From the NCBI GenBank assembly GCA_038062075.1, contig JBBTXY010000003.1:17589-81588 (forward strand): DNA of 64,000 nt, given 5' to 3'. This document shows positions 27,640-63,227 of this stretch, piece by piece. This stretch comes from Patescibacteria group bacterium (lineage in GTDB: Bacteria; Patescibacteriota; Minisyncoccia; Phycocordibacterales; UBA2100). The position numbers and the translations under genes were made by a program. The notes beneath the pieces were generated by a model. That model saw only the letters and a program-made list of their open reading frames with translations, was not told the DNA's origin and searched no databases. Within the stretch, counting starts at the first letter, position 1, and every line of letters begins with the position of its first letter.

Positions 27640-28140
27640 ATGCGCAAGCCAGATAGCAACTACGCGTTCATCGATGCGCAGAACGTGTACATGGGGACGA
27701 GGGCGACTGGATGGACGATAGACGCATTCAAACTCCGCGTGTATCTGCGCGAGACATTCGATGTTGAGCGCGCATATTGGTTCGTCGGTTTCCTATCAGA
27801 CATGCAAGACTTCTACACACTGCTTCAGCGCGCAGGATATGTGCTCATATTCAAGGAAGTATCGCGTGATCACGAAGGGACACCGAAAGGGAATGTCGAC
27901 GTCGACCTCACGCTTCATGCTGTGGATTTGCAGTCGGAGTACGACAAGGCTGTCCTCCTCACGAGCGATGGGGATTTCGCCAGTCTGGTGCGCTACTTAC
28001 GCGAGCGCGGCAAGCTTCGTGCGATCTTGAGCCCGAATCGCGCACGTACATCAAGACTCCTTCGCAAGGCGGTCGGCAGCAGTGCGAGCTTGCAGTATCT
28101 CGAAGATGCAAAACAAAAGATCGCACGCGCAGCGTTATGA
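27640..28140 (+). CDS. NYN/LabA-like (PIN-related) domain protein
   Basis: 'AFIDAQNV' ... 'VLLTSDGDF' NYN motifs. Confidence 0.65.
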   Translation: MRKPDSNYAFIDAQNVYMGTRATGWTIDAFKLRVYLRETFDVERAYWFVGFLSDMQDFYTLLQRAGYVLIFKEVSRDHEGTPKGNVDVDLTLHAVDLQSEYDKAVLLTSDGDFASLVRYLRERGKLRAILSPNRARTSRLLRKAVGSSASLQYLEDAKQKIARAAL

Positions 28141-28340
28141 GAACCAATAGCCCCTCAAAAAAGAAAAAGCCCTCCGAGGGACGAACCCTTTGGCGAGCTT
28201 CTTCATAGTGATTAGCTACATACTAGCAACCATCCGTAAAAAGTCAATGAGAAAAATGGGGATTGGGCAGGGCTGTGCGGCTGAAGTCGCGTCTGATACT
28301 GCAGCTAGCGCATGTAAGCCATTTTTGATAGATTGCGCGG

Positions 28341-29438
28341 ATGCAAGGGAAGAAAGTCTCCCGACGAGCTGACCATCGGTATGCTGTAATCATGGCCGGT
28401 GGGACTGGCACGCGGCTTTGGCCCTTGAGCCGTAGAGAGAAGCCGAAGCAATTTCAGCAGTTAGTGGGGGATACGACATTGCTCCAGGAAATGTACAGAC
28501 TTCTCTCAAACTCTTTTCCACCAGAACATATTTTTATTCAGACCACGCCCTCGTACCTGCATTTCGTCAAAGAACAGCTTCCGCAGGTTTCGTCGGAGCG
28601 CATTCTAGTGGAGCCTGAGATTCGAGACACGGCCCCCGCATTTGCGTATATGGCGGCACGCATCGCAGCGCTTGATGAAAAAGCGAATGTCGGCATTTTC
28701 TTTTCCGACCATCTCATCGAGACGCCCTCCCGATTTACCGCCGCAATCGAGCACGCATTCAAGGTTGTGACCGCATTTCCCGAATACATGGTACTGGTGG
28801 GTGTGTCGCCGCTTTTCCCGCATACAGGGCTTGGCTATATCCAGCTGGATCCGAAGAGGAAGGTAGGTGCCAATACCTATAGGGTGAAGTCGTTCGTCGA
28901 AAAACCCAATGCTACAGAGGCCCGCCGACTTGCGCGGTCGGATACGTATTTGTGGAACACCGGCTACAAAATCATGTCAGTGCAGAGAATGTTGCACCTG
29001 CTTTCAAGTACGAAAGAATATGCATCCGCTATACAAATGCTTAAGAAGGCCATACGAGAGGACGATGACACGGCGTTGCGCGCCGTATATACAAAGTTTA
29101 AAAAGAAATCCTTTGAGTACGTTTTCACCGAACGTGCGAAGAATCTCGCGGTTGTCCGCTCGAATATGCGGTGGTCGGATGTGGGCGATTGGGAAACAGT
29201 CCATCGAATCTTAACAAAGAAAAAGAAATCAGGCCTGCATACTGGCGGAAAAGTCATCCAGCATGATTCTAAAAATACGCTCCTTTTGAGCAATCATCGC
29301 TCCATTGTCGCCGTAGGTGTCGAGGGCTTGATTGTGGTCGAAACGGAGAATGCGGTTTTGGTGATGTCGAAATACCAAAGCCAGGACATCAAACGGACGA
29401 TAGAAAAATTGATCAAGCAGGAACCGGATCTACTCTGA
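28341..29438 (+). CDS. manC: Mannose-1-phosphate guanylyltransferase (no C-terminal cupin)
   Basis: 'YAVIMAGGTGTRLWPLSRREKPKQF'. Confidence 0.75.
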   Translation: MQGKKVSRRADHRYAVIMAGGTGTRLWPLSRREKPKQFQQLVGDTTLLQEMYRLLSNSFPPEHIFIQTTPSYLHFVKEQLPQVSSERILVEPEIRDTAPAFAYMAARIAALDEKANVGIFFSDHLIETPSRFTAAIEHAFKVVTAFPEYMVLVGVSPLFPHTGLGYIQLDPKRKVGANTYRVKSFVEKPNATEARRLARSDTYLWNTGYKIMSVQRMLHLLSSTKEYASAIQMLKKAIREDDDTALRAVYTKFKKKSFEYVFTERAKNLAVVRSNMRWSDVGDWETVHRILTKKKKSGLHTGGKVIQHDSKNTLLLSNHRSIVAVGVEGLIVVETENAVLVMSKYQSQDIKRTIEKLIKQEPDLL

Positions 29439-29444
29439 TTTTTT

Positions 29445-30401
29445 ATGAAAGAACATATATTAGTTACGGGTGGCGCGGGGTTTATCGGCTCGAATTGCGC
29501 GAATATTCTTGCTGAGAAGGGGTATGATGTTGTTGCGCTCGACAATCTGTCGCTCGGCACCGTGGCGAATCTTGAGAAGCGTGTTCGTTTCGTTGAGGGA
29601 GATGTACAAGACCCGCGCACGCTTGAGGCGATCGGTCCAGTTGCATATGTGATACATCTTGCCTCATCTTCATCTGCTCCAATGTTTGCGGACGATCTCG
29701 TAGGGAGTGTTGGGAACAACATCCTCGGGCATGTCCAAATCTTAGAATACGCACGTCGCACTGGCGCACGCAAGGTGCTCTACGCCTCTACCTCATCCAT
29801 CTACGGCAACAATCCCACGCCGCTCTCGGAAAATCAGTCTGTGACGCCTCCGAATTTTTATGCTGCCACAAAGCATAGTCAGGAAGAGCTCTCACAGGTC
29901 TATCAGCAGGTGTACGGTCTCGAGATCATCGGATTTCGCTTCATGAGCGTCTACGGTCTGCACGAGGAACATAAGGGGCGATTCGCAAATCTCGTTTCCC
30001 AGTTCATCTGGGGCATGGAACAAGGGAAGCGGCCTGTGCTCTATGGCGATGGGAGTCAGACGCGCGACTTTGTGAATGTGCGCGATGTGGTGAATGCGTT
30101 CGAGCTCGCCATAGGTACGGCCAACAGATTCGGCTCGACGGTGTTTAACGTTGGCACGACACGCGCGACATCACTTTTAGAACTAGTGCACATCATCAAT
30201 CGCGTTATGGGGACACATATCGAACCGGAACTGGTTCCCAATCCCGTCAAAGCGGGCTACATCATGGCGCAGCAAGCCGATCTCTCGAAGATCCAGAGCG
30301 AACTTGGCTATGCACCGGCGGTCGCCCTCGAGGCGGGAATTCGTGAAATCGTCTCGTATCGAAAGGGTAATCCGGTACCACCTCCTTCTTTAAGTTTTTA
30401 G
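29445..30401 (+). CDS. NAD-dependent nucleotide-sugar epimerase
   Basis: 'ILVTGGAGFIGSN', 'YAATK'. Confidence 0.75.
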   Translation: MKEHILVTGGAGFIGSNCANILAEKGYDVVALDNLSLGTVANLEKRVRFVEGDVQDPRTLEAIGPVAYVIHLASSSSAPMFADDLVGSVGNNILGHVQILEYARRTGARKVLYASTSSIYGNNPTPLSENQSVTPPNFYAATKHSQEELSQVYQQVYGLEIIGFRFMSVYGLHEEHKGRFANLVSQFIWGMEQGKRPVLYGDGSQTRDFVNVRDVVNAFELAIGTANRFGSTVFNVGTTRATSLLELVHIINRVMGTHIEPELVPNPVKAGYIMAQQADLSKIQSELGYAPAVALEAGIREIVSYRKGNPVPPPSLSF

Positions 30402-30419
30402 GGGCTAAAAAGCGAAAAC

Positions 30420-31382
30420 TTACGCGTTATAGTGCGGATTCTGGACGTCAATCAGGTGAGCCGCGCGGATGAGCTCATCAATTCCTTGTTCCATAGAAAC
30501 GGTCGTTTTGTATCCGAGGCTTCCGAGTTTTTTATATGACACGAGGTAGTCCCGCTGGTCGATATCCTTACCGACATCGGCGAAGTGAAGAAAGTAGTCG
30601 GTCTTTTTCTTGATCATCAGGCACACCTCTTCTTTGGTGAAGTTCAAACTATCGTCTCCCACGTTGTATATTTCTCCTTGCATCTTCTTGTACTGCTCGA
30701 GTGCAAAAAGAAACGCCCGCGCCATGTCGCGCACATGGATAAAGGTTCGCATAAAATGTTTTTCGTAGACGATGAGGCTTCGATCACGCACTGCGCGGTA
30801 CGTAAAATCGTTGGGCATAAGGTCAAGGCGCATCCGCGGCGAGATGCCAAAAGCGGTCGCGAATCGGAAGATGACATACTCTTTGTTTTTCTTTACGATC
30901 TCCTCGGCTTTGGTTTTCTGTCTGCCGTAGTGCGAAAGGGGGTTGAGCGGCGTCGTTTCGGTGCAGATCGCTTCTTTCATCTTTCCGTAGTTGCTTCCGG
31001 TGGAAGCGAACACGACGGGGATCTTTCTTCCAGCAGCTTCTACGAGGATCTTCGTTCCGTTCACGTTCGTGTCGTACGAAAGCTTCGGGTCTTTCTGACA
31101 CGCGGGGGCGCCCACGATCGCCGCAAGGTGAATGACCGCATCTACCCCCCGCATGGCTTTCGCAACGTCTGCTCGATTCCGGACATCCCCTCGTATGAAT
31201 TCGAGGTTTGGATGCGCGAGGACAGGAAGAAGCCCTACGCCGCCGAGGCGCAGTGAATCAAGGACGCGCACCGTGTAGCCGTTGCTCAAAAGGAGCGGGA
31301 CCAAGGACGTCCCGACATAGCCGGCGCCCCCGGTGACGAGCACGGTGTTGAATACACGCTTCTTCCGCGAAGGTCGAGCCAT
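30420..31382 (-). CDS. NAD-dependent epimerase/dehydratase
   Basis: 'VLVTGGAGYVGTSL', 'YGRQK'. Confidence 0.7.
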   Translation of the reverse strand: MARPSRKKRVFNTVLVTGGAGYVGTSLVPLLLSNGYTVRVLDSLRLGGVGLLPVLAHPNLEFIRGDVRNRADVAKAMRGVDAVIHLAAIVGAPACQKDPKLSYDTNVNGTKILVEAAGRKIPVVFASTGSNYGKMKEAICTETTPLNPLSHYGRQKTKAEEIVKKNKEYVIFRFATAFGISPRMRLDLMPNDFTYRAVRDRSLIVYEKHFMRTFIHVRDMARAFLFALEQYKKMQGEIYNVGDDSLNFTKEEVCLMIKKKTDYFLHFADVGKDIDQRDYLVSYKKLGSLGYKTTVSMEQGIDELIRAAHLIDVQNPHYNA

Positions 31383-31391
31383 GGGAGCACG

Positions 31392-32717
31392 TTATACGGA
31401 ATGAGGAGTTTTTTCAAGTCGGTGCGCATGCGTGCGCCGGAAGAGAATAAGACCGAGAAATCCGATAAGAATAAAGAACGGGAGGTAGGGCGTATTGAAA
31501 CGCGGGACAACGTTGAAGAAGCTCAAGGTGATGATATTATAAAAAATGAAAAGGAGCGCGAGGATGCCGAGCGCTCGGACATCCCCCTTGCCTTTGGTGC
31601 GTATTAGCTGGTAGAGACCGAAGAGAAAGAATGAATAGATGAAGAGGTACTGCACCGGCCTGAAATAGCGGTTGAGGGTGTCGGAATAATCGTGCTCGAT
31701 GTAACCGAGTTTTACCATCTCCACCACATTGCCGTAGAGGTAGTGCCCGGGGCGGGAGAGTATCGTATGAATGTTCTTCGCCCTGATGCGCGCGACGGCT
31801 TCGCTCGTGGTCGCAAGCGTCTCGTATTCGTAGCCGAGCTTTTTGAATTCGTTGTCGGTCAGGAACTGCGTGTTCTCGCCGCCGGAGATACTGCGCCAGA
31901 GCCAGTCGCGGAGATACCTCGTGATCTCGCCGTAGGAGAGCTCGGCGCGGACGGCGCGATAGTACAGCATGTCATTCTGCCGGCCGCTCGTGACTGCAAA
32001 GACGCCGGTGTTTGCGTAGATGTAGGATGCAAATGAAAGGGGGATCACGGCGAATACTGCGAGTGCGATGATAGTGTTGCGCATGACCTGCCACGATAGT
32101 GGCCGGGCATATATGAGATAGAAGAAGGCAATGAAGAATGGGAAGAGAACGAATTGGAACCGCACCAGCGCTTCATAGCCGAAGGCGAGTCCGAGGAGCG
32201 CGTACCAATACCATGGCGCTGCCGCGGGAGAGCGCATGATACGCACACAGAGGAGAAGGATCACGCCGAGCATGAAGATGAACAGAGGCTCTGCACCGGT
32301 TTCGTTGGTGTGGTGGCCGAGTATCGGCTGTGATGCGATGCAGATGCCGGCCACAAGTGCGATCCATGTTTCTCCGTAATGTTTTAAAATGCGATAAATG
32401 ATGAATCCGAGAAGTCCGAGAAGGAGCGCCTGCGTGAACGATGCGGCGAGAAGGGCGAGGGGCGTTTCGATGCCGAAGATCTTGTAGAAGGGCAGAAGAT
32501 AGAACGACACGCCCGGCTCACGGTAGATGCTGAACGTGACACCGTCGAGGCTGTAGCCATTTCCGAGCGAAAGATTCTTTGCGTAGGCGCTGTAATCAGC
32601 CGCATCTTTCCAGCCAGGGTCATGGATGAGTCCGAAAACGAAGAAATTTGCGATTGCGAGCGCCATCAACAAGACAAGTATCCAAATGTCTTTTGAACGG
32701 GATGTCATGGTGAGCAT
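31392..32717 (-). CDS. GT-C fold membrane glycosyltransferase (ArnT/PMT, GT39/83-like)
   Basis: Multi-TMS; 'DPGWKDAADY' first-loop acidic motif. Start trimmed to ATG 32717 to avoid overlap with divergent gene. Confidence 0.55.
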   Translation of the reverse strand: MLTMTSRSKDIWILVLLMALAIANFFVFGLIHDPGWKDAADYSAYAKNLSLGNGYSLDGVTFSIYREPGVSFYLLPFYKIFGIETPLALLAASFTQALLLGLLGFIIYRILKHYGETWIALVAGICIASQPILGHHTNETGAEPLFIFMLGVILLLCVRIMRSPAAAPWYWYALLGLAFGYEALVRFQFVLFPFFIAFFYLIYARPLSWQVMRNTIIALAVFAVIPLSFASYIYANTGVFAVTSGRQNDMLYYRAVRAELSYGEITRYLRDWLWRSISGGENTQFLTDNEFKKLGYEYETLATTSEAVARIRAKNIHTILSRPGHYLYGNVVEMVKLGYIEHDYSDTLNRYFRPVQYLFIYSFFLFGLYQLIRTKGKGDVRALGILALLFIFYNIITLSFFNVVPRFNTPYLPFFILIGFLGLILFRRTHAHRLEKTPHSV

Positions 32718-32783
32718 TAAGTATACGGCACAAGGTCTGTGGATATCCCTCAAAGACGTCTTGTTCTGTTGTATCATCCTGAC

Positions 32784-33809
32784 ATGGGAAAAATCGCATC
32801 GAAACGAGACCTTATTGTTCTTGGTGTTTTGGGAACATTTGTTCTAGGAGTTTTTTACCTGACGCCGGTCGCATCCGGAGGGCCCAATAAGCAACTGGCC
32901 CCGAAGATTTCAAATATCGCTGTGACCTATATTACCCCGTACACGGCGATCATCACGTGGGATACGGACATGCCTACGACAGGAATGGCCCACTACGGGC
33001 TCAAGGCCGGTAGTATGGGCGCGGGCGCGGGCGGCTCGCCGGGTCCCGTCACGGCTCATGCTGCGACACTGGGCAATCTCTCTCCATCAATGAAATATTA
33101 TTTTTACGTTGATGCGAGCAATCCAGTGACCAATGGATTTTCAAAATCAAAGCCGTTCTCATTTACTACGCTTACGTCCGCTCCGCGAGACGTCACCCCT
33201 CCTCCGCCACCGACGGTTACTGGTAGTGCGGCTTCAGCTTCTCAAATCAACCTGACCTGGAGCGCGTCTGCTGATATCAGCGGTATTGCGGAATATCGTG
33301 TATTCCGTAACGGACGCGTGGTCGGGATTGTTAATGGAATTACGAGAAGCTACGTTGATACAGGTCTTGGCGATGGCGGTCTTCAGCCGTCAACCACGTA
33401 CAGCTATACAGTTAATGCCGCTGATGCGGCAGGCAACTGGTCAGTGCAATCATCTCCAGTCTCGATCACAACACTTGCAGGTCCCCCCGATATAATTACG
33501 CCCACGACTCCTGCAGGGCTTGCCGTCATCTCCACCACAGCATCTTCTGCTTCGCTTTCATGGTCTCCCGCAACCGACAATGTCGCAGTCAGAGGATACA
33601 AGGTGTATCGTGATGGAGCACAAGTCGCCACTCCGGGAGGGACAAGCCATACCGACTCTGGGCTCACCGCATCAACCGCGTATAATTATATGGTCGCGGC
33701 GTATGATGCGGCAGGCAATACGTCGGCCCAATCAGCACCAATAACTGCTACGACCCTTGTAGCTCCTCCAGCCACTACGACGTCGCCGACCGCCACCAGC
33801 ACTCCCTAG
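32784..33809 (+). CDS. Membrane-anchored protein with three fibronectin-III-like repeats, Thr/Pro-rich tail
   Basis: N-terminal TM; two ~90-aa internal repeats ('..LTWSASADISGIAEYRVFRNG..' / '..LSWSPATDNVAVRGYKVYRDG..'). Confidence 0.6.
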   Translation: MGKIASKRDLIVLGVLGTFVLGVFYLTPVASGGPNKQLAPKISNIAVTYITPYTAIITWDTDMPTTGMAHYGLKAGSMGAGAGGSPGPVTAHAATLGNLSPSMKYYFYVDASNPVTNGFSKSKPFSFTTLTSAPRDVTPPPPPTVTGSAASASQINLTWSASADISGIAEYRVFRNGRVVGIVNGITRSYVDTGLGDGGLQPSTTYSYTVNAADAAGNWSVQSSPVSITTLAGPPDIITPTTPAGLAVISTTASSASLSWSPATDNVAVRGYKVYRDGAQVATPGGTSHTDSGLTASTAYNYMVAAYDAAGNTSAQSAPITATTLVAPPATTTSPTATSTP

Positions 33810-33810
33810 A

Positions 33811-33967
33811 GCATGTCTGGAAACCCGTGGTACCCAGGTAGAACTGTTTTGTTTTCGTTGCGAGACGCCTCTTCGGAGCCTGAAGTGTAGCCGAGCTACA
33901 TTGAGGGCGAGAAGAGGTGTCGAGTAGAAAACAGAACAGTTCTAGCAGGGGAGGTTTCCAGATATGC
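33811..33967. repeat. 157-bp imperfect palindrome (MITE/ERIC-like element or giant bidirectional terminator)
   Basis: Terminal inverted repeats GCATGTCTGGAAACC / GGTTTCCAGATATGC; internal matched blocks TAGAACTGTT, TTGTTTTC; central hairpin TGTAGC-cga-GCTACA. Confidence 0.6.
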
Positions 33968-33981
33968 TCTAGCACGGGCTA

Positions 33982-35301
33982 TCACTTCGCGAACACAAGG
34001 AACTTGTAGCCGAGGAAGTTGCCAAGGATCGCGGTGAGAATCGTAAAGAGGAGCGCGATGTTGGCCCACAGGGTGGTTGATATCCCTGCAGGAGCTCCGA
34101 CGATGTTCACTAATACATGGATGATGCCGAGGTTCACCAGCGCGGTTGTTGAGGTGACGGCGAAGAAACGCATGTACTGCCGTGTGCGGTTCTGGGGCGG
34201 CGTGTGGTGGAACGTCCAAAACATATTCCAGAAGAACGACTGCGAAATGACGATGGCGAAGGTAATGAGCGCGAAGAACGTCACGATAAGACCCTCGGAA
34301 ACGCCGCTTATGAAGATCAACGAATTGAAGATCGCCATGTTGAGCGTGGTATTGAAAATGCCCACGATGCCATAGCGGCTGAATTCCGCGGCACTGTGCT
34401 TGTGCAGGGGGAGAAGCGCGAGCCCCATCGCGCCGCAGACGAGCCCGGCAGGCACGACAAGAAGCAAGAATGCGATCGTAAGGGATGTGGGAATGCCGCG
34501 CTCGGTAAGGATCGCGAATATACCGAGATTGTGCAGGATCGGGATGAGGAGGACCGCGACGGCGATGCCAAGCGTTGCGATAAAATACGCGTCGCGCCGC
34601 GAGAGGCTGGTGCGGGTGCGCATGTAGAGCGCAAAAAGAGCGAGCCCCATGCTCGGACCGTCGCGAAGGAGCCGGATTGAGGTCTGTGATTCGTTCACGA
34701 GGGTGACCGGTATGAATGCGATCGAATCGCCCCTGTGTTGTGCGAGGTAGAGCACGTCCACATCAAAGGTGTACCCATCCGTCTTAAGCTCGCGGAAAAT
34801 GATTCGTCCGATGTCGGCGCGCACCCCTTTAAACCCGCACTGCGTGTCAGCGACCGGTTCGAGAAGTATCGTGTTCGCAAGCAGGGAAAAAATGACACTT
34901 GAGAGCTGGCGTTCGGGGCGTCGCTTGGTCTCGAATCTCGAATCCGGAAGGTGCCGCGAGCCGCAGACGAGATCCGCGCCCTTTGAGAATTCTTTGAGCG
35001 CGGTATCGATCGCGCTGAAGTCATAGGGCAAGTCTATGTCCGTGAAGAACACATACTCGCCTTCTGCGGCAAGCACGCCGGCGCGCACGGCCGCTCCTTT
35101 GCCGCGGTTGGCTGGCAAGGTAATAACCCGTATCGGGGCAGGTACATCCCGTAAGATCGCCGGGGTGCCGTCGGTCGAGCCATCGTCGACGAGGATGATC
35201 TCGAGGACGTCAGAACGCGATCGGACCCAACGATCCAGGTGCGTGATGGTGGCGCGGAGCTTGCCTTCGAAGTTATAGACTGGGATGACGAGCGAGATCA
35301 T
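33982..35301 (-). CDS. Polyprenol-phosphate glycosyltransferase (GT2, DPM1/ArnC/GtrB-like) fused to C-terminal GtrA-like 4-TMS domain
   Basis: 'ISLVIPVYNFEG', 'VDDGSTDGT', 'DIDL' DxD; C-terminal hydrophobic GtrA-type domain. Confidence 0.7.
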   Translation of the reverse strand: MISLVIPVYNFEGKLRATITHLDRWVRSRSDVLEIILVDDGSTDGTPAILRDVPAPIRVITLPANRGKGAAVRAGVLAAEGEYVFFTDIDLPYDFSAIDTALKEFSKGADLVCGSRHLPDSRFETKRRPERQLSSVIFSLLANTILLEPVADTQCGFKGVRADIGRIIFRELKTDGYTFDVDVLYLAQHRGDSIAFIPVTLVNESQTSIRLLRDGPSMGLALFALYMRTRTSLSRRDAYFIATLGIAVAVLLIPILHNLGIFAILTERGIPTSLTIAFLLLVVPAGLVCGAMGLALLPLHKHSAAEFSRYGIVGIFNTTLNMAIFNSLIFISGVSEGLIVTFFALITFAIVISQSFFWNMFWTFHHTPPQNRTRQYMRFFAVTSTTALVNLGIIHVLVNIVGAPAGISTTLWANIALLFTILTAILGNFLGYKFLVFAK

Positions 35302-35335
35302 ACGGAAGGCGATAGTAGCACGAATGCTCGGGCGG

Positions 35336-36793
35336 TTATTTGCGCTCCAACATGAGATACGCCGCTGCCATCCCGCTTTCGTGGTAGCCGCTGAAGAGCG
35401 CCTGCTTTTGTTCGTAGGCCTCGTGAGAGAGGAGGATTATGTCGGGGACGCCTTTTTCGATGAGGTGGAGCTGCTCCTCCCCATAGAGAATCGTCTCCGT
35501 CGGCTGCAGGTACTGGTAATACTTTGTGGTAGGGAGGAATATTACCGCTGCAGGGCTGTTGTAGATGAAAATACTCTTATTCTCCGGGAACGAAGAGAAG
35601 TATTCTATCATTTGGGCGGTACGCGTCGTGTTGTAATGTTCGGCGACCCACGATGCGTAGTTAAGCTGATAGAACTGCATGAGCGTAAGAGCGGCGACGA
35701 TAAAGATGACGCCGAACGTAGCATACGGCCGAAGATATGCGCGGCGCTGTCCTGCTGCTTCGGCAAGGACTTGCAGGGATTGCGGCATAAAGAGAAGCGC
35801 AAACACCATCGCTTGGAAAAGGTAGCGATACCATCCGGCGGTTCGTAAGTATGCGAAGAGAACCATAACGGCAAAGACGAACGCAGACTTCTCGACGAGC
35901 GATATCTGCCCTTTCTGGTAGAGCCGGATGAGAAGTCCAGCGGTCCACACGAGCATGAGCGCTGCGCAATAAAGCGGCGTCGTCTCCGTGAAGAATCCAA
36001 TGAGATTGTGCATCACGGTTTCCGGTATTGAGGCGACGCCGTAGGGATTCGCATAATAGGAAAGTATGAGGGAAGGGTCCACGTGTCCGAATTGGAGATA
36101 CATCCAGAGGGCAAGCGGTGCGATGAATGCGACGAGGGCCGCACCGATGTTCCTCACGTGCAGCGGGATGGACCGAACATGGAAGAGAAGGACGAGACCT
36201 ATCGCCGCCGGCATGAGGAGAAAGATGGGTTTTGTCGCGGCGACGAGACCTGTTGTAAGCCCAAGAAAGACGTAGTGCCAAATGCCCTCGAAGTTCCGCT
36301 CGCCGAGGCGATGGAGCGCGAGAAGCGCGAGCATCGAATAGAAAAGACCGGGGATCTCCCCGAGCACGTTCTTGCCGTTGCCATAGATGATGGGGAACGT
36401 CGCGAGGAGCGCGAGTCCGAGAAGAGCGTTACGCGATCCCGCGACGCGGACGAGAAGCACCCAGGCGGAAAGGGCAAACAGTATGATGAAAAGTACCATT
36501 GGGATGCGTGCTGCGAGAAGTGAGTTACCAAAGAGTTTGAGCGATGCCGCAACTGGTGCAATAAGCGGATAGCCGACCGTGAGGAAGTCAATCTGACGGA
36601 ACTCACCCGGTGCGACCTGGACGGTCTGCTCTCCGCGCTCACCGAACGACTGGGCGACCTGGATGTAGATACCCTCGTCATACCATGTCGGCGGGCTTTC
36701 GGTCAGGCGGTACGTCGCATAGAAGACGACGACTCCGAGGAGGCACGCGAGGATACCGACATACGCTTTCGAGGGGAGTGCCGAAGTGGGCAT
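35336..36793 (-). CDS. GT-C fold membrane glycosyltransferase (ArnT/PMT-like)
   Basis: 'TWYDEGIY' DE motif in first extracytoplasmic loop; ~12 TMS. Confidence 0.6.
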   Translation of the reverse strand: MPTSALPSKAYVGILACLLGVVVFYATYRLTESPPTWYDEGIYIQVAQSFGERGEQTVQVAPGEFRQIDFLTVGYPLIAPVAASLKLFGNSLLAARIPMVLFIILFALSAWVLLVRVAGSRNALLGLALLATFPIIYGNGKNVLGEIPGLFYSMLALLALHRLGERNFEGIWHYVFLGLTTGLVAATKPIFLLMPAAIGLVLLFHVRSIPLHVRNIGAALVAFIAPLALWMYLQFGHVDPSLILSYYANPYGVASIPETVMHNLIGFFTETTPLYCAALMLVWTAGLLIRLYQKGQISLVEKSAFVFAVMVLFAYLRTAGWYRYLFQAMVFALLFMPQSLQVLAEAAGQRRAYLRPYATFGVIFIVAALTLMQFYQLNYASWVAEHYNTTRTAQMIEYFSSFPENKSIFIYNSPAAVIFLPTTKYYQYLQPTETILYGEEQLHLIEKGVPDIILLSHEAYEQKQALFSGYHESGMAAAYLMLERK

Positions 36794-36826
36794 ACAAAGA
36801 GATTTCTATGATACCCTGCAAGCACT

Positions 36827-37726
36827 ATGGAAGCCACCGTGCGTTCGCTCGCGCGCAGAGCCGTCACGGGACTTCTCCACCTCCTTCCGAGCGGCGCGCC
36901 GCCGCGTATCTATGCCACGCTCTTCCGTGGCCCGTTGGGAAAAATAGGGAACCCGCTCATCAAGGCGCTTCTGCCGGTGCAGGTACGTCTCCCTGAAGGC
37001 CTCATCATCCTCAACCGCGAGGATCCGACCGTCTCTGCCGCGATTGCCTTCGGGGTTTTCGAACCGTATGAGACGCAGCTTTTCAGGGAAGCGGTGCGGC
37101 CCGGGATGACGGTCGTCGATATTGGTGCGAACATTGGCTACTTCACGGTGATCGCCGCCCACCTCGCGGGGAAAACGGGCCGCGTTATCGCCTTCGAACC
37201 GGCGCCGGAGAATTTTCGCGTGCTCACCGAGACGTTGAGCGTGAACGGATTCGTAACGGCACGTGCATACCAGGTGGCTATTGCAGACAAGGAAGGGACG
37301 CTGATCTTGAACCTCTTCGATTCCAACAAAGGCAAGCATTCGCTCGTCAAAGACAAGAGCGACGAGAAAGGTTTCGACGGATCGATACGCGTGAGCGCCA
37401 CGACACTCGATGCGTTCTGTGCATCGCACGATGTCGGTACGATCGATGTCATTAAGATGGACATCGAGGGCGCGGAATCACTCGCGCTCTCTGGCATGCA
37501 CCAGGCGCTCGCCGATACGAAGGTCCTTTTTATGGAATTCACGCCCTCCGCGATACGGAAAGTAAGGGATGAGCCCGAAGCAGTCCTGCGCTTCCTGCGT
37601 GAGAAAGGATTCAAAGTATCCTCGATCGAAGAGCACACGAGATCGACGCGTCCGATCGCGGACGTCCGAGCATTCATACGTTCAATACCGGATGGCGAGT
37701 GTGCAAATCTACTGTGCAAGAAATGA
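36827..37726 (+). CDS. FkbM-family methyltransferase
   Basis: 'VVDIGANIGYFT' plus 'IDVIKMDIEGAE' FkbM motifs. Confidence 0.7.
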   Translation: MEATVRSLARRAVTGLLHLLPSGAPPRIYATLFRGPLGKIGNPLIKALLPVQVRLPEGLIILNREDPTVSAAIAFGVFEPYETQLFREAVRPGMTVVDIGANIGYFTVIAAHLAGKTGRVIAFEPAPENFRVLTETLSVNGFVTARAYQVAIADKEGTLILNLFDSNKGKHSLVKDKSDEKGFDGSIRVSATTLDAFCASHDVGTIDVIKMDIEGAESLALSGMHQALADTKVLFMEFTPSAIRKVRDEPEAVLRFLREKGFKVSSIEEHTRSTRPIADVRAFIRSIPDGECANLLCKK

Positions 37727-37735
37727 CGGGTGTTT

Positions 37736-38800
37736 CTAGGCGCCGCGCTCGCGCAAAAGGCGATACCACGCGAGCATCCGCTTCAGACCTTCTTCGAGTG
37801 TCACGTCCGGTTCGTAGCCGAGTTCGGTGCGCGCCTTCGTGATGTCCGGCAGACGGCGGCTCGGATCGCCGACCGGATACCCTTCCGGATATTCCGCATG
37901 TTGGATATCAAGGGGCGATCCGTAGACGCTTTCCACCTTCTTTGCGAGGTTGTAGATGGAGATCTCTCCCTCGTCGGTCCCGATGTTATACGCTTCGCCG
38001 CTTCTTCCAAGGAGAAGGGCGCGCAGAAAACCGTTGAGACAATCGGTCGTATAGGCGAACGTACGGGTTTGCGCGCCACGATTATGGATCTCGATCGTGC
38101 TGCCGTCGAGCGCGGCATTGAGGAAATTCGGCAGAACGCGCTTGTCGTCTATTTTCATACCGGGACCGTAGGCATTGAACGGCCGCACGCTCACGACGGG
38201 GACCCCGTGCACGCGGTGATAGATCGTCGCGATGGTCTCGCCGACACGCTTCGATTCGTCGTAGCAGGCGCGCAGGCTCGTGCAGGAGACATGGCCGTGG
38301 TACTCCTCTGTGGTCGGGATGTTCTCGGGGGTCGGATCGCCGTAGATCTCGCTCGAGCTGAAGTAGAGGACGCCTTTCGCTTTCTTTGCGCGCGCCAACT
38401 CGAGCGTATGCCGCAGGCCGTCGATAGTCGCCGTCAGCGTTTCCATCGGGTATTTCGCGTAGTAGACGGGGGATGCGATCGATGCCGCGTGCATGATGTA
38501 ATCGATATTCCGCTCGGTCTCGAATGGCACGCATACGTCATGCTGTATGAATTCAAGATTCGAGTCGTCCATGGTGAAGAGCGGACTGCCCTTCACGCCG
38601 GTGATGAAATTGTCCAGCGCGATCGTGTGCACGGGCTTTGTGAAGCGCGTGCGATTGAGGTATTGCATCAGGCCGACGATATGGTTCCCCAAAAAGCCGC
38701 CAGCGCCATTGATGAGGATCGTGGTGCCTTCCAAACGGTCGGCTACGTCTCCGAGTTTGCGAGCGACTTCGGAGAATTGCGCTTCGATAAATGCGGGCAT
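37736..38800 (-). CDS. UDP-glucuronate decarboxylase-like (UXS/ArnA-C-like) extended SDR
   Basis: 'ILINGAGGFLGNH', 'ACYDESKRVGET' (cf. UXS 'ACYDEGKRVAET'), 'FNAYGP'. Confidence 0.7.
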   Translation of the reverse strand: MPAFIEAQFSEVARKLGDVADRLEGTTILINGAGGFLGNHIVGLMQYLNRTRFTKPVHTIALDNFITGVKGSPLFTMDDSNLEFIQHDVCVPFETERNIDYIMHAASIASPVYYAKYPMETLTATIDGLRHTLELARAKKAKGVLYFSSSEIYGDPTPENIPTTEEYHGHVSCTSLRACYDESKRVGETIATIYHRVHGVPVVSVRPFNAYGPGMKIDDKRVLPNFLNAALDGSTIEIHNRGAQTRTFAYTTDCLNGFLRALLLGRSGEAYNIGTDEGEISIYNLAKKVESVYGSPLDIQHAEYPEGYPVGDPSRRLPDITKARTELGYEPDVTLEEGLKRMLAWYRLLRERGA

Positions 38801-38838
38801 ACGAGACGGCAGTGTAGCAGATAACGGCTGTTTCGGGA

Positions 38839-40197
38839 ATGGTCAAAGCGCTCTGCAGAGGCGCGTGTGCATTGTTGACACAGTCCACATCCTGGACAAT
38901 GATGCTACGGATGAAGGCACGCTATCCGAAACATCATGCGATACGGACCGGCCACATCGCGCGCTGTCAGATATGCAATTCCTTGAAACTGCATCTCATT
39001 CTGGATCTCGGGTTCCAGCCGCCGGCTGACTCGCTCTTAACGACGCAGATGCTCAATGAGCCGGAGAAGACGTATCCCCTGCGGATGGTGTGGTGCGAGA
39101 AATGCACGGGGGTCCAGCTCGATTACTGCGTCGACGGAAAAGAGGTGTATCACCCGAACTATCCATACCGAAGCGGCATCACGAAGCCCTTGGCAGAATA
39201 TCAGCGGAACATCAGCCACTCTCTCATTGAGAAGTACAATCTCGGCCCGAAAGACCTCGTGATAGACGTTGGCTCCAACGACGGGACGCTCCTTAGCGGC
39301 TTCAAGGAAAAAGGCGTGCGGGTCTTAGGCGTTGAGCCGACGAACACTGCCGATATCGCGAACAAAAGCGGCATCAAAACCGTCAAGTCGTTTTTCGACA
39401 TCAAAACAGCGCGTGCGATACGGAAGAAATACGGCAAGGCCGCAGTCATGACCGCGACCAATGTCTTTGCGCACATGCAGACTTTGGGCGAGGTGATCAT
39501 GGGTATCTATGAACTTCTCGAGGACGACGGCGTGTTCGTTTCCGAATCGCACTATCTTTTGGATGTCATCAAAGACAATCAATTCGATACGATATACCAC
39601 GAGCACCTGCGGACGTATTCACTGCACTCCCTTATCGCGCTTTTCAAGCAGTATGATTTCACCATAACGGATGTCGAGCGGGGGAGCCGGTACGGCGGCA
39701 ATATCCGCGTGCATGTCACCAAAGGGAAGGGGAGAAAGGCGAGTCCCGCAGTCGGGAAGCTGCTCGCGGAGGAGAAGAAATTCGGGCTCGGCAAGCTGAA
39801 GACTTACACGACGTTCGCAAAGCGTGTCCGGAAGGCGCGGCTAGAACTCATAGACTTCCTTATTCAGGCGAAGAAGAAAGGCAAGCGCATCGCCGGGAAA
39901 TCAAGTCCCGCCCGTGCCGCGACCCTTCTTAATTACTATGGCATCGACACCGAGCTCATTCCGTATCTGGCTGAACAGCCGACCTCGCTGAAACTTAATC
40001 AGTATCTGCCCGGCGGGCACATTCCGATTGTTGATGAAAAGATTCTTCGTAAAGACAAGCCTGATTACATCGTTTTAATGGCGTGGCATTATGCGAAGGA
40101 GATCTCCAAACGTCTCAAGGTTGAAGGCATACGATCGGACTTTGTCGTGCCGCTTCCCGAAGTGCGCGTGATAAAAAATGCGGCGGTAAAAGCGTAG
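38839..40197 (+). CDS. Zinc-ribbon NDP-sugar C-methyltransferase family (TylCIII-like; Methyltransf_13 + MTase + C-MTase C-domain), copy 1
   Basis: 'CQICNS...CEKC' zinc ribbon, 'VIDVGSNDG' motif I, C-terminal domain. Start probably an internal Met (~38899). Confidence 0.6.
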   Translation: MVKALCRGACALLTQSTSWTMMLRMKARYPKHHAIRTGHIARCQICNSLKLHLILDLGFQPPADSLLTTQMLNEPEKTYPLRMVWCEKCTGVQLDYCVDGKEVYHPNYPYRSGITKPLAEYQRNISHSLIEKYNLGPKDLVIDVGSNDGTLLSGFKEKGVRVLGVEPTNTADIANKSGIKTVKSFFDIKTARAIRKKYGKAAVMTATNVFAHMQTLGEVIMGIYELLEDDGVFVSESHYLLDVIKDNQFDTIYHEHLRTYSLHSLIALFKQYDFTITDVERGSRYGGNIRVHVTKGKGRKASPAVGKLLAEEKKFGLGKLKTYTTFAKRVRKARLELIDFLIQAKKKGKRIAGKSSPARAATLLNYYGIDTELIPYLAEQPTSLKLNQYLPGGHIPIVDEKILRKDKPDYIVLMAWHYAKEISKRLKVEGIRSDFVVPLPEVRVIKNAAVKA

Positions 40198-40200
40198 CGC

Positions 40201-41226
40201 ATGCTCAACGTTGCTATTGTCGGCTCGGGTTTTGGTCGGTACGGTCTCCTGCCTGCGTTTGCTGCGGTGCCGCAGTGCACGGTTGTCGCGGTATGCGGGA
40301 AGAAAACAGATTCCCTTCGTAAAGATTGCCGGCGTTTTGGTGTTGAACATATCTACGAAGACTGGCGTGCGCTTTTGAAGAACGAGCGTATTGACGCGAT
40401 TGCGCTCGCGGTAACGCCGCGCGCGCAATACACGATTTCGAAAGCGGCGCTTCGCCAAGGCATCCATGTTTTCGCGGAAAAGCCGCTGGCGGTGGATCTC
40501 GCGCAGGCGAACGAACTCTTGCGCCTCGCACGGAAAAAACGCATTGTCACTGCGGTTGATTTCACCTTTCCGGAAATCGCCGCATGGCAGAAGGTCAAGC
40601 GATTGCTCGATGCGAAGACCTACGGCGAATTGCGGCATATCACAGCGAATTGGGATTTTTTGAGCTACGATATTGCGCACAAACGGAAGTCGTGGAAGAC
40701 CATCGCCGCCGAAGGCGGCGGAGCGCTGTCATTCTTTTTCTCGCACGGGTTGTACTATCTCGAGCATTTCGCGGGGACAATCTCGGATGTGCAGAGTAAC
40801 TTCTCGTACGCGAAGGAAAGTCTCGGCGGCGCGGAGGCGGGCGTCGATATGCTGCTCACGTTCCAGAGCGGAGTCATGGGAAGTGCGCACATCTCCTGCG
40901 CCGCGCGGGGTCTCCACCGCCACCAGCTTCTCTTCCACTGCGCACGTGCGACGATCGTGCTTGAGAACGAAGGGAGCCATATGAGCGGCTTCACGCTCAC
41001 CGTCTACGAGAAAGGGGCGCGGCGCATCGCGGTTTCTGCCGAGCGAGTCGTCAAGCATCAAGATCCACGCGTTCCTTTCGTGAAAAAGATCGCCGCACGG
41101 TTTGTCAGGAGCTGCCGGAGCGGCGCAACGATGCACCCGGGTTTTAAGGAGGGAGTGCGTGTGCAGGAGCTGATAGCACAGATACGATCCCGGCACACAG
41201 GTACGAAACCACGAGCTGCACGTTGA
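40201..41226 (+). CDS. Gfo/Idh/MocA-family oxidoreductase (cassette copy 1)
   Basis: 'VAIVGSGFGRYG', 'EKP'. Confidence 0.7.
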   Translation: MLNVAIVGSGFGRYGLLPAFAAVPQCTVVAVCGKKTDSLRKDCRRFGVEHIYEDWRALLKNERIDAIALAVTPRAQYTISKAALRQGIHVFAEKPLAVDLAQANELLRLARKKRIVTAVDFTFPEIAAWQKVKRLLDAKTYGELRHITANWDFLSYDIAHKRKSWKTIAAEGGGALSFFFSHGLYYLEHFAGTISDVQSNFSYAKESLGGAEAGVDMLLTFQSGVMGSAHISCAARGLHRHQLLFHCARATIVLENEGSHMSGFTLTVYEKGARRIAVSAERVVKHQDPRVPFVKKIAARFVRSCRSGATMHPGFKEGVRVQELIAQIRSRHTGTKPRAAR

Positions 41227-41245
41227 TAAAGGCCTGTACAATGGT

Positions 41246-42685
41246 ATGTCTCGTATGAAAGAGCAGACATTCGATTATATTGTTCTTGGCGGCGGTGTCT
41301 CGGGTTTGGGATTCGCGAAGCGGGTGAGCGAGAACAGCAGGTCGGTGTTGGTCCTCGAAAAAGAAGCAGTTGTCGGCGGCCTCTCGCGGAGCCTCCAGCA
41401 TAAGGGGTTTTATCTGGACTTTTGCGCGCATCGCTTCCACACAAAGAACAAAGCTCTCCTTGATGAGATCCGTTCGCTTCCCGGTCTCACGATGGAGCGC
41501 CATATCAAGAAGAGCCGCATCTACATGTTCGGGAAGTATTTGAAGTATCCGTTCGAGATACAGAATCTCCTTCGCGCCATGCCTATCACCCAGAGCTTCC
41601 TTTCAGGGCTCTCGTTCCTCAAGAACCTCGCGTTGAAATCGCTGCGAACGACGCGAGACCTGCGCTCATATAAAGATTGGTTCGTTCATCTCTATGGTAC
41701 ACGCCTGTATGAAGTCATGTGCCGGCCGTATACCTCGAAGATATGGCATCGTGATCCCAGCGAGATATCCGCAGATTGGGCCGATCAGCGTTTCCAAGGA
41801 GAGAACCTCTCCAAGCTTCTCGGGCGGATCATGAAGAAGATACTCACGCTGGATTTCAGTTCATACAATCTGGAGGACGACAGCCTCGCCCCGGATGGCG
41901 GCGCATTCTACTATCCACTGCGCGGCATCCAGGAGATGCCGGACGCGCTCGCGCGCTCAGCGGAGCGGAATGGCGCTCGCATTCTCACGAAGACAACGGT
42001 CACTAAGGTGAATACCGCTGCACGTACGGTTACGTTCGAGCACGAGGGGGTTCCTCGTACGGTCTCCTATGCTCAACTGATATCGACGATCCCCCTGCAT
42101 GCATACTATGCGCTCCAGGAGCGGCGCGATCCAAGGATCGAAAAGCACCTCACCAGCCTCACGTACATGGACATCATCTTTGTCTATCTATTTCTGGACA
42201 TTCCCCAGGTCTCCAACGACCACTGGTTGTATTTCCCGGACCCGGACATTATCTTCAATCGCGCCGTTGAGTTCTCGAACTGGTCGCCGCAGATGTGCCC
42301 ACCGGGGAAGACCGCGATTTGTTTCGACATCACGGTATTCCTCGAATCACCGGAATGGCAGATGAGCGATGAGGTGCTCATCGAGCGGACGATCGCCGAC
42401 GCGGCGCGCGTGGAGTATGTTAGAAAAGAGCATGTCGAAGAGGGGTTGGTTTTCCGCGTCACGCACGCGTATCCGTTCTACGACCTCGACTATCGAACGA
42501 AACTGGATGCGATCGTCCGCTTTCTTGAGACGGAACACGTGCATCTTCTCGGTCGCACTGGCATTTTCCGCTACAACAACTCCGACAACTCCATCGAGAT
42601 GGGCTTCGAGCTTGCGGAGAAGATGCTTGCCGGGAGATCTGCCGCGAGCGCTCACGAATATCGGGTAAAAGAAGTGAGCTACTGA
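41246..42685 (+). CDS. FAD-dependent oxidoreductase (amine-oxidase/PPO/Glf-like Rossmann), copy 1
   Basis: 'DYIVLGGGVSGLGFA...VLEKEAVVGG' dinucleotide-binding motif. Confidence 0.65.
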   Translation: MSRMKEQTFDYIVLGGGVSGLGFAKRVSENSRSVLVLEKEAVVGGLSRSLQHKGFYLDFCAHRFHTKNKALLDEIRSLPGLTMERHIKKSRIYMFGKYLKYPFEIQNLLRAMPITQSFLSGLSFLKNLALKSLRTTRDLRSYKDWFVHLYGTRLYEVMCRPYTSKIWHRDPSEISADWADQRFQGENLSKLLGRIMKKILTLDFSSYNLEDDSLAPDGGAFYYPLRGIQEMPDALARSAERNGARILTKTTVTKVNTAARTVTFEHEGVPRTVSYAQLISTIPLHAYYALQERRDPRIEKHLTSLTYMDIIFVYLFLDIPQVSNDHWLYFPDPDIIFNRAVEFSNWSPQMCPPGKTAICFDITVFLESPEWQMSDEVLIERTIADAARVEYVRKEHVEEGLVFRVTHAYPFYDLDYRTKLDAIVRFLETEHVHLLGRTGIFRYNNSDNSIEMGFELAEKMLAGRSAASAHEYRVKEVSY

Positions 42686-42690
42686 CGGAT

Positions 42691-44079
42691 ATGCATCTCC
42701 TGCGGAGCATGTTCGGCGAGAAAAGGATACGCTTTACGCTTTTCGCGATCTCTCTCCTCGCGCACCTCGTCGTATTCGCGCTGCTCCTCGTGCACTACGG
42801 TCCGTCGGCATCTTTTTTTTCGGTCGACGGGTCGTTGAATGGCAACGACGCGCAGCACTACGTGACGATCGCGAAGAATCTTGCGGAGGGGAACGGGTAC
42901 TCCCGTTTCCCGGACGCGCCATTCGAGCCGGATGCGTTCCGTACGCCACTTCTCCCGCTCTATTTCGTCCCCTTCGTCTTTTTCGGCGGCCTGCCCCTCA
43001 TATGGCTCCCCATTCTTCTTTTAAATCTAATCCTCGCATTCGCGGCGGTCCTCATGTACAAGCTGGCACGGCTCTTCCTCCCGCATGGATATGCGGCGGC
43101 CGCCGGGCTCGCCATGGCGCTTGACCCCTTGTTTTTGTACCGCAGCCAGCTCGCGGAACCGGACGCGCTCTTCGTGTTTCTCACGCTCGGTGCTGCATAC
43201 TTCTGCGCGCTGTTCTGGGGGACCGCGCGTCCTCGCTACATCCTCTTTTCGTCGGTCATCTTAGGCATCTCCATCCTTCTCAAACCGACCGGACTGTATG
43301 TCGCGATCATCCTCTTTGCATGCCTCGCCGCGTTCGTCTTTTTCTTCAGACGAGGAGAGTGGCGCATGCATGCGAGGCATCTCATTTTCGGGGCATTGAT
43401 ACTACTGGCGCTTCTTGCGCCATGGCTGATACGCAACCACGCGTCCTTCGGCGTCTGGGGTATCTCGAGCGTCGGCGGATTTAATCTCTACGAATTCTAT
43501 ACGGTGAACCAGCGGTTGCCCGGTGAGCAAGTGCCCGAGAACATAGCGACGAGCAGTCGGGAACCGAGCCGACACCTTCCGAACCAGTCATACTTTACGG
43601 ACGTTGCAATGGAGAGGATACGAGAGGCGCCGCTCTCCTATGCGAAAGAACAGGCGGTGGGGACGTTGCGCAACCTGTTCGTTTCGGAGTTGCCGGTCAT
43701 CTACTACTATGGCCATAGCGCTCTCTTGCCTTTTCCCTACAATCCGGAGTCAACAACAAACCTGCGCGAACTTCTGCTCCAAGGGGACGGAGCGAGCGTC
43801 TTCTTTGCGCTTGCCCACAATATCCCGAAGGTTCTCTGGTTCGCCGCGCTTCTTTTTGTCTATATCCTTACCTTTCTCGGCTGGCTGTACGCATGGAAGA
43901 AGGATCGTGTCGTCTTCCTCATGTTCACCTCCTTCATCCTGATCTTCGGGTATTTTGTCGTCGCCTCGGGACCGTATGTCGACGCTAAATACCGGATGCC
44001 CGCAATGCCGCTCATCGTGATAGTGTGTGCATATGGCGTTTATGAGTTGCGGAGTCAATGGTGGCGAATACGACCATGA
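42691..44079 (+). CDS. GT-C fold membrane glycosyltransferase (ArnT/PMT-like)
   Basis: Multi-TMS, Dol-P-sugar transferase-like topology. Confidence 0.55.
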   Translation: MHLLRSMFGEKRIRFTLFAISLLAHLVVFALLLVHYGPSASFFSVDGSLNGNDAQHYVTIAKNLAEGNGYSRFPDAPFEPDAFRTPLLPLYFVPFVFFGGLPLIWLPILLLNLILAFAAVLMYKLARLFLPHGYAAAAGLAMALDPLFLYRSQLAEPDALFVFLTLGAAYFCALFWGTARPRYILFSSVILGISILLKPTGLYVAIILFACLAAFVFFFRRGEWRMHARHLIFGALILLALLAPWLIRNHASFGVWGISSVGGFNLYEFYTVNQRLPGEQVPENIATSSREPSRHLPNQSYFTDVAMERIREAPLSYAKEQAVGTLRNLFVSELPVIYYYGHSALLPFPYNPESTTNLRELLLQGDGASVFFALAHNIPKVLWFAALLFVYILTFLGWLYAWKKDRVVFLMFTSFILIFGYFVVASGPYVDAKYRMPAMPLIVIVCAYGVYELRSQWWRIRP

Positions 44080-44954: not shown

Positions 44955-45004
44955 GTCCGGTGCACTGCCTTGCACCCAAGCGCAAAGTAGTGTTTATTGT
45001 GCGG

Positions 45005-55658: not shown

Positions 55659-55785
55659 CACGAAAAAGATCCACTGCGGAGGACGGGTGCGAGCTCCAAA
55701 AGTGAAAGTCAAATTGTGAGTGCCGCCGCCCTCCACAGTAGATCCTTCTTTCCCAAGTGTATCGACTTCCCATAAAAACGCAAAA

Positions 55786-55800
55786 CCCGCCGAAGGCGGG
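55786..55800 (-). terminator. Hairpin CCCGCC-gaa-GGCGGG with T-tract on minus strand
   Basis: On minus strand followed by TTTTGCGTTTTT; no annotated minus-strand ORF upstream. Confidence 0.35.
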
Positions 55801-56066
55801 ATCTGCGCGACTTTCTCTGGGCATCACATCTTTGTGACACTCACGTAGTTATCATAGCGCATCGAACTGGAAACGCAATCGTATGCATACTGATCTTTTC
55901 TTAGTTTCCATTTTTGATTTTTGTCTCTCTTTAGTTATCCACAGAAAAAATAAAAAACACATGCATGACGCACATAGAGTGCAATAATTCAGAAAACGCA
56001 TCAACATACGCAAAGCAACGATGCGGGTCGAATGTTTTAGTCCCTAGGGAAAACTAAAAAAATACT

Positions 56067-56117
56067 ATGGCCAAGAAAAAGAAGGCGAAGAAGGCAAAGA
56101 AGTCTCGCCGCCGATAA
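56067..56117 (+). CDS. 16-codon Lys/Arg-rich mini-ORF (MAKKKKAKKAKKSRRR) upstream of secA
   Basis: ATG..TAA intact, AGGGA 14 nt upstream, followed immediately by a strong terminator; too short for the ORF track. Confidence 0.3.
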   Translation: MAKKKKAKKAKKSRRR

Positions 56118-56137
56118 GACCTCCTCGGTCTATCCGA

Positions 56138-56170
56138 GAAGAACCCTCCTCTGGAGGGTTCTTCTCTTTT
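56138..56170 (+). terminator. Strong rho-independent terminator/attenuator
   Basis: 12-bp perfect stem GAAGAACCCTCC/GGAGGGTTCTTC, 3-nt loop, then TCTTTT. Confidence 0.65.
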
Positions 56171-63211: not shown

Positions 63212-63227
63212 GAATATCCGACTACGC

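Follow-up and report, generated by a model that had tools for sequence, protein, structure and literature searches.

A palindrome between convergent genes of a groundwater patescibacterium as a probable miniature derivative of an IS5-family insertion sequence

The locus and its palindrome

The window considered here, that is, the whole stretch of DNA that was analysed, covers 64 kb of a 109-kb contig, and the closest relatives of its genes belong to Candidatus Kaiserbacteria. Within the window, two convergent genes enclose a large palindrome, a location given in the preliminary description and borne out by gene annotation. On the + strand, positions 32784..33809 encode an FN3-repeat protein of 341 aa, secreted or membrane-anchored (Pfam fn3, 3e-24). 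On the - strand, positions 33982..35301 encode a family-2 glycosyltransferase fused to a GtrA-like membrane domain, or GT2-GtrA (Pfam Glycos_transf_2, 7e-28; GtrA_DPMS_TM, 3e-15). The palindrome occupies 167 of the 172 intergenic bases as well as the FN3 stop codon. The wider setting, at about 28000-46000 of the window, is a large cell-envelope glycosylation cluster comprising several PMT_2-type glycosyltransferases, the GT2-GtrA gene, sugar epimerases/dehydratases, methyltransferases and a flippase. Gene order in this cluster is conserved in Kaiserbacteria, but the FN3 protein differs (341 vs 538 aa, only ~40% identical). Neither tRNA nor tmRNA genes were found in the window.

An imperfect palindrome of 157 bp had been reported at 33811-33967. 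It is indeed present, but its limits lie 5 nt further out on each side, at 33806-33972, giving a length of 167 nt. The outer arms, CTAGAGCATGTCTGGAAACC and GGTTTCCAGATATGCTCTAG, are complementary at 19 of 20 positions, and the terminal repeat of 14/15 recognised earlier corresponds to the inner portion of this outer arm. The inner arms comprise 43 nt and match at 72%. The central TGTAGC-CGA-GCTACA hairpin noticed earlier lies at 33886-33900 and is contained in an apical hairpin, AGTGTAGC-CGA-GCTACATT (33884..33902, + strand), which corresponds to helix 6 of the family consensus described below.

In RNA folding, the + strand of the palindrome reaches -109.5 kcal/mol vs -54.6 +/- 4.1 for dinucleotide shuffles (z = -13.3), none of the 200 shuffles matching the real sequence. 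The - strand reaches -82.8 kcal/mol (z = -10.1), and the gap between the strands results from 6 G-U pairs on the + strand vs 1 on the - strand. The element RNA is predicted to form an end-to-end imperfect hairpin of ~68 pairs. In a sliding 120-nt scan, the palindrome is the top + strand fold across the 64-kb window (-68.1 vs a mean of -33.4, sd 7.1). As to copy number, it occurs once in the 64-kb window, since both blastn and a 3-mismatch pattern search recovered just the element's own two arms and no second copy.

Transposon ends, target site and parent insertion sequence

We hold with high confidence that the palindrome is a non-coding miniature inverted-repeat element (MITE) of 161 bp belonging to an IS5-family insertion sequence (IS). 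This was one of the options raised at the outset, and it is the one sustained by the data: the ends are those of an IS5-family IS and of many short derivatives elsewhere, the target TA is duplicated, and the site is empty in syntenic relatives.

The element proper, GAGCATGTC...GATATGCTC, extends over 33809..33969 (+ strand), with boundaries derived from the flanks of more than 20 insertions. Its left terminal inverted repeat, GAGCATGTCTGGAAACC, is of the IRL type, measures 17 nt (33809..33825, + strand) and matches IS ends exactly; the same sequence is found without mismatch in the IS ends of L058/L104, L096, L115, L126 and L134-L139 and in more than 20 short elements. The right terminal inverted repeat (33953..33969) reads GAGCATATCTGGAAACC on the - strand and carries 1 mismatch relative to the left one. 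The 17-nt ends are thus complementary at 16/17 positions, or at 19/20 when the flanking CTA/TAG are counted. Both ends of the window element are of the IRL type (CTGGAAACC), whereas the full IS has an IRL/IRR pair. The interior of 127 bp (33826..33952, + strand) is itself an imperfect palindrome. The only ORF across the element is a mechanical one of 66 aa, and tblastn with the family transposase revealed no transposase gene in the 64-kb window; the element is therefore non-autonomous.

The element is bordered by a duplicated TA, at 33807..33808 on the left, where G33809 completes it to the FN3 stop codon TAG, and at 33970..33971 on the right, where it is followed by G33972, the original last base of the CTAG target. 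Flank comparison across more than 20 insertions defines GAGCAT...ATGCTC as the extent of the element, TA as the duplicated target and Y-TA-R as its context. Among the YTAR target variants CTAG is the most frequent, and TTAG, CTAA, GTAG and TTAT also occur. A target duplication of 3 or 4 bp is excluded because some insertions have unequal flanks.

Around the junction, the nearest relatives have kept the gene order, and the two genes meet there without an intervening element. In Kaiserbacteria RIFCSPLOWO2_01_FULL_53_17 (L129-L131), whose glycosyltransferase is 75% identical to that of the window, the spacer is 0 nt and the TGA of the FN3 gene is immediately followed by TCA, the reverse complement of the glycosyltransferase stop. 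A second relative, L132 (64% identical), has a spacer of 6 nt, and its FN3 protein ends in ...TTTP*, similar to the ...TSTP* of the window. These empty-site relatives are different species, at 64-75% protein identity, and not sister strains. Without the element and one of the two TA copies, the window reads ...ACT CCC TAG CACGGGCTA TCA..., with a spacer of 9 nt, and the allele expected for the empty site at this junction reads ...ACTCCCTAGCACGGGCTATCA....

The target CTAG would thus consist of the C of the final proline codon and the TAG stop of the FN3 gene. Comparison of the sequences shows that the element landed in the TA within the stop codon of the FN3 gene itself, so that the stop codon is the insertion site and the gene reads into the element. 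The G with which the element starts restored the TAG, leaving both proteins unchanged. Between the insertion site (CTAG at 33969-33972) and the stop of the glycosyltransferase gene lie 9 nt, CACGGGCTA at 33973..33981, which represent the pre-insertion intergenic spacer, comparable with those of 0 and 6 nt in L129 and L132. CPR hosts have tiny genomes of ~1 Mb and almost no intergenic space. With a YTAR/TA target, stop codons are natural and harmless landing sites, and in the window one was hit and then rebuilt. Stop codons were also considered as a general target of the family and rejected as such, since in just ~7 of 37 genuine insertions does the TA belong to the stop codon of an ORF with 80 codons or more. 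Locus L111 is a second family insertion wedged between abutting convergent stops.

The parent IS is seen in L058, a Patescibacteria MAG from Hainich well H43 (L058/L104). There, an IS of 906 bp starts with the same end as the window element, closes with ...GGTTTTTGAACATGCTC-TAG and holds a single ORF of 272 aa. The encoded protein is an IS5-family transposase (NCBIfam NF033580, 234.7 bits vs a cutoff of 110) with the Pfam domains DUF4096 (PF13340) and DDE_Tnp_1 (PF01609), and one of its database relatives is named 'IS5 family transposase [Candidatus Kaiserbacteria bacterium]'. Full-length copies of 903-922 bp are present in L096/L113/L124, L104, L115, L126 and L134-L139. The transposase family is very large: a threshold of E <= 1e-40 takes in over 7,600 proteins of the database, and the family falls into more than 120 clusters at >=70% identity, mostly on contigs of 0.9-1.5 kb. 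The nearest plasmid-borne IS5-family transposases, from Streptomyces, Nostoc and Synechocystis, are at most 49% identical and are annotated just as 'IS5 family', with no subgroup label. In view of this low identity, the parent IS is regarded as a separate lineage. No match to the family end was found in viral contigs.

The IS also occurs in the groundwater from which the window came. In well H51, the window's own well, four contigs with differing flanks (L095, L101, L109 and L118) all end in the same IS-type end. H51 also yields a complete IS of 903 bp, whose transposase shares 81% identity with the L058 protein (P0123). This IS opens with 54 nt that are the same as in the H51 contig ends, and the sequences flanking it agree with the sites of L118 and L095. 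The intact 903-bp IS occupies at least four sites in this well. Contig L109 (29 kb) has a tetranucleotide correlation of r = 0.92 with the window, the window's own 5-kb chunks ranging from 0.87 to 0.95, and its genes MEK7509640/641 belong to one accession run with the window glycosyltransferase MEK7509221. Binning, sequential accessions and composition together suggest that L109, which bears one IS end, very probably comes from the same genome as the window.

A dispersed family of hairpin elements

The 17-mer matching both arms was scanned against 185,579 species-representative genomes, a set that does not include the source genome. The scan returned 89 single matches, which is about chance level. 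A subset of these matches, nearly all from CPR/Patescibacteria, extends to 20-22 nt including CTAG, and outside CPR the 17-mer gave only chance-level single matches. In four of the extended matches (Kaiserbacteria L041, Saccharibacteria L045, and L081/L082) a second, inverted arm follows 130-280 nt away. Two genomes have the family end on two contigs each (L041 and L090; L053 and L088), and in the first of these, a Kaiserbacteria genome, the two contigs carry the same 125-bp element. An element type of ~164 bp is present at four sites or more. A scan of metagenome contigs with a 19-mer gave 36 loci, among them full-length copies of 905-922 bp and ~20 short elements of 57-188 bp at differing sites. 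Altogether, more than 20 short derivatives of 57-279 bp occupy distinct sites in Kaiserbacteria, Saccharibacteria, Giovannonibacteria and other groundwater CPR. Many family matches lie at contig ends, as repeats that interrupt assemblies would.

The window variant itself is identical in three assemblies of the same population, among them GCA_964363605.1 (groundwater MAG, Hainich well H51, 0.1-um fraction), and was found only at this locus. Its interior gave no BLAST match to any of the fetched loci. As the exact variant is known from one locus and its interior lacks a BLAST match, its own mobility is deduced from that of the family.

Three observations on other members of the family deserve mention. 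In the pair L081/L082, a contig assigned to an 'archaeon' MAG (DATDXH01) and one of Candidatus Giovannonibacteria have the same element and flanks over the ~380 nt compared, and the former is probably mis-binned or mislabelled in the public record. The mini-elements of L100, L102 and L117 measure 57-63 bp, consist of little beyond the two ends and a short loop, and may be the smallest family members. In L074 (Saccharibacteria CAYHZE01), a tRNA-like sequence with the T-loop motif GGTTCAAATCC lies at about 880-1021, within ~100 nt of a family end; the element may have inserted beside a tRNA gene, or its interior may carry one.

Every short element is predicted to form a single end-to-end hairpin, with -0.4 to -0.7 kcal/mol per nt. 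The window element aligns end to end with the profile of the ~164-bp subfamily and scores 21.0 bits. When only its interior is shuffled, the score drops to 13.1 +/- 2.5, with 8 of 500 shuffles attaining the real value; if the palindrome is preserved in the shuffling, 1 of 500 does so. Furthermore, the interior of the window element shares its layout and a series of invariant columns (TTT, CGAGAC, GAG, TCG, AA) with a superfamily of 155-170 bp, these columns being invariant in all 13 aligned elements, that of the window included. The consensus fold of the 13 elements comprises 48 pairs, with 94.5% of cells paired. Compensatory change is seen in 18 of the 48 pairs vs 6.5 +/- 1.8 in shuffles (0/500 reach 18) and 4-10 with slid partners, in an alignment to which only ~5 independent lineages contribute. 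The compensatory changes are concentrated in the interior helices. With so few lineages, these figures speak for a constraint on the fold and not for the cause of that constraint. They indicate that the hairpin is a trait of the family, kept by compensatory substitutions, and that it did not evolve at this locus.

The strand asymmetry is likewise a property of the family. The strand running from IRL to IRR folds better than its complement in 13/13 elements, with G-U pairs on one strand facing A-C on the other, and the orientation of family elements relative to their neighbouring genes is mixed. Since all 13 share the bias whatever their neighbours, the advantage of the + strand at this locus is best seen as inherited and gives no sign of local RNA selection. 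Taken as possible evidence of selection at the RNA level, the asymmetry speaks neither for nor against it, given the mixed gene orientations among the aligned elements.

Proposed mobilisation, known relatives and other readings

According to the mechanism that we propose, the element would contribute transposase-binding ends (GAGCATGTCTGGAAACC, inverted at both termini) and no gene, and the 272-aa DDE transposase of a full-length copy would act in trans on the two 17-nt ends and thereby move the short element, which would depend on such a copy for any movement. Mobilisation in trans is proposed because of established knowledge of DDE insertion sequences and MITEs (PMC10969869). Insertion would occur into a YTAR site, here CTAG, with duplication of the central TA, at a junction where 9 nt would have separated the stops of the FN3 gene and the convergent glycosyltransferase gene. 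Both convergent genes would since then transcribe into the hairpin of ~68 bp. The hairpin RNA might stop read-through, hold off 3' exonucleases or serve as substrate for a double-strand RNase; for Correia and ERIC elements, effects on the fate of mRNA by way of RNase III or RNase E are documented (PMC10969869, PMC2649163). With ordinary T-run terminators elsewhere in the genome and relatives that lack a spacer, no function needs to be assumed.

The element closely resembles the IS-derived MITEs of other bacteria, which are small, non-coding and intergenic, have the ends of an autonomous IS and a target duplication, occur as many dispersed copies in related genomes, and have transcripts predicted to form a very stable stem-loop (PMC10969869). 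It differs from described MITEs in its host, which is a member of CPR/Patescibacteria, and in that the window variant is single-copy in the data searched. Literature searches revealed no description of MITEs in CPR/Patescibacteria. The family thus appears to be undescribed, but it is a well-known kind of element.

The IS5 family includes the subgroups IS5, IS427, IS1031, IS903 and ISL2 and is related to the eukaryotic PIF/Harbinger elements; IS5 itself duplicates 4 bp. The parent IS is like other members in its length of ~0.9 kb, single ORF, short inverted repeats and DDE transposase. In contrast to IS5 itself, a 4-bp duplication is excluded for the CPR family by flank comparison. Target duplications of 0, 2 or 3 bp have been reported for the IS5 superfamily, and the 2-bp TA duplication of the parent family falls within this range (PMC12730594).

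By analogy, the Correia elements of Neisseria (CREE/NEMIS) are the best functional counterpart. Their target duplication is TA, and their end sequences are not known to be related to the ends of the window element. They measure ~100-160 bp, have inverted-repeat ends and a target duplication, and are often co-transcribed with adjacent genes as a hairpin (PMC2649163). For them, neither an autonomous partner nor a means of mobilisation has been established (PMC2649163), whereas the partner IS of the CPR family is identified. Promoter creation, IHF binding and RNase III cleavage are further Correia features; no sigma-70-like promoter was found at the window element. ERIC is an imperfect palindrome of just >100 bp, located in intergenic regions or 3'-UTRs, whose RNA hairpin can affect mRNA decay (PMC10969869). 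The resemblance to ERIC put forward at first holds only as an analogy between hairpin-forming intergenic repeats. It fails at the level of sequence, blastn with 11-nt words (E <= 0.01) giving no match in 5,426 complete genomes of E. coli, the carrier of ERIC. Unlike ERIC, the window element belongs to a different phylum, and its transposon ends, duplication and parent IS are defined.

It is conceivable, though we think it unlikely, that the MITE has been exapted, that is, retained because its RNA hairpin terminates or insulates convergent transcription or sets the stability of the 3' end of the FN3 mRNA. The + strand, on which the FN3 transcript would be read, folds far better than the other (-109.5 vs -82.8 kcal/mol), the hairpin starts at the stop codon, and the junction in relatives leaves no room for a terminator. 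Maintenance of the family hairpins by compensatory change is consistent with such a role, and Correia and ERIC provide precedents for altered mRNA fate (PMC10969869, PMC2649163). However, the element has no T-run on either side, and hairpin-plus-T-run terminators are available in the genome (e.g. 56136-56172). Moreover, the better-folding strand is the IRL-to-IRR strand in every aligned element, so that the asymmetry looks inherited, and relatives function without any spacer. We also entertain, with considerable doubt, a more general proposal: the folded hairpin would be the selected, strand-specific working part of a CPR MITE superfamily, maintained beyond the divergence that BLAST can recognise. 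It could act through a folded single strand in transposition, or through recruitment as RNA insulators or 3'-end stabilisers in compact CPR genomes, in which convergent genes often meet end to end and TAG/TAA stops (YTAR) would be safe landing sites.

Another origin of the short form was weighed and is judged improbable, namely that a full-length IS inserted at the junction and then lost its interior in place, the short form never having moved. The single-copy state of the variant and an interior that is unique by BLAST fit this account, as do the two ends of the IRL type, unlike the IRL/IRR ends of the full IS. Nevertheless, the interior has no similarity to any full-length IS, and a simple internal deletion would not yield a 127-bp interior palindrome. 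In addition, the element agrees with the dispersed superfamily of 155-170 bp in length (165 vs 164 bp, TA counted), in layout, in its invariant columns and in the positions that pair.

The position between convergent genes and the extreme fold energy could suggest an oversized bidirectional terminator, or mRNA-stabilising hairpin, that evolved at the locus and resembles IS ends by coincidence. The window element does share with intrinsic terminators a GC-containing hairpin straight after a stop codon between convergent genes. As was recognised from the start, it is far larger than a typical intrinsic terminator: these have 5-15 pairs and a T-run, whereas the element has ~68 pairs, no T-run and no counterpart in relatives. 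A scan for terminator-like sites in 33806-33981 found none on either strand, and no T-run is present. Relatives lack the element at the syntenic junction, each end matches a transposon family over 19-21 nt and in the flanking TA, and the CPR matches to the 17-mer extend to 20-22 nt with a second inverted arm. A native terminator is for these reasons highly improbable. Single-copy status, together with simple termination in RNA-seq, had been proposed as the mark of a mere oversized terminator. Copy number would mislead here, since the window variant is single-copy in the data searched and yet a member of a dispersed mobile family.

Equally, there is next to no likelihood of an independent structured non-coding RNA gene or riboregulator: the fold is very stable and strand-asymmetric and covaries across relatives, but the element has no Rfam match and no promoter-like site, and its relatives, delimited by transposon ends and TA duplications, are scattered over unrelated loci in either orientation. 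The structured RNA suggested in the preliminary description is accordingly set aside in the sense of a dedicated gene; a search against Rfam 15 gave nothing at the gathering score anywhere in the window and nothing overlapping the element at E <= 10.

Read as a MITE, the palindrome is explained as routine mobile DNA, and following it up as a novel RNA or regulatory device is not advisable. The analysis documents an IS of the IS5 lineage together with a hairpin-shaped MITE family across groundwater CPR (Kaiserbacteria, Saccharibacteria and Giovannonibacteria). Because repeats break metagenome assemblies, the family consensus could help to close CPR genomes and to track strains. Should the hairpin prove functional at the RNA level, the CPR would have in this family an equivalent of the Correia and ERIC elements.

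Three other hairpins of the window, at 58844-58880, 60977-61036 and 63173-63222, were examined as candidate family members and rejected, as they do not have the family ends. The second lies in a gene-free gap (60406-61134) which, at ~730 nt, is unusually long for a compact genome. It is a near-perfect hairpin of 60 nt with ~28 pairs and a 4-nt loop, is strongly strand-asymmetric (-65.2 on the + strand, -50.7 on the - strand), and has neither IS ends nor an Rfam match. In the intergenic region 55659-56255 (~600 nt), the - strand has a strong fold at 55646-55765 with -62.7 kcal/mol. A textbook hairpin-plus-T-run terminator is present on the + strand at 56136-56172, and the region gave no Rfam match at E <= 0.1. 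Finally, a perfect 18-bp hairpin without a T-run (CCAGCACCAATGTTTCTT/AAGAAACATTGGTGCTGG, 58844-58880) is located 45 nt past the end of an 847-aa gene (58799) and may be a terminator-like or protein-binding palindrome.
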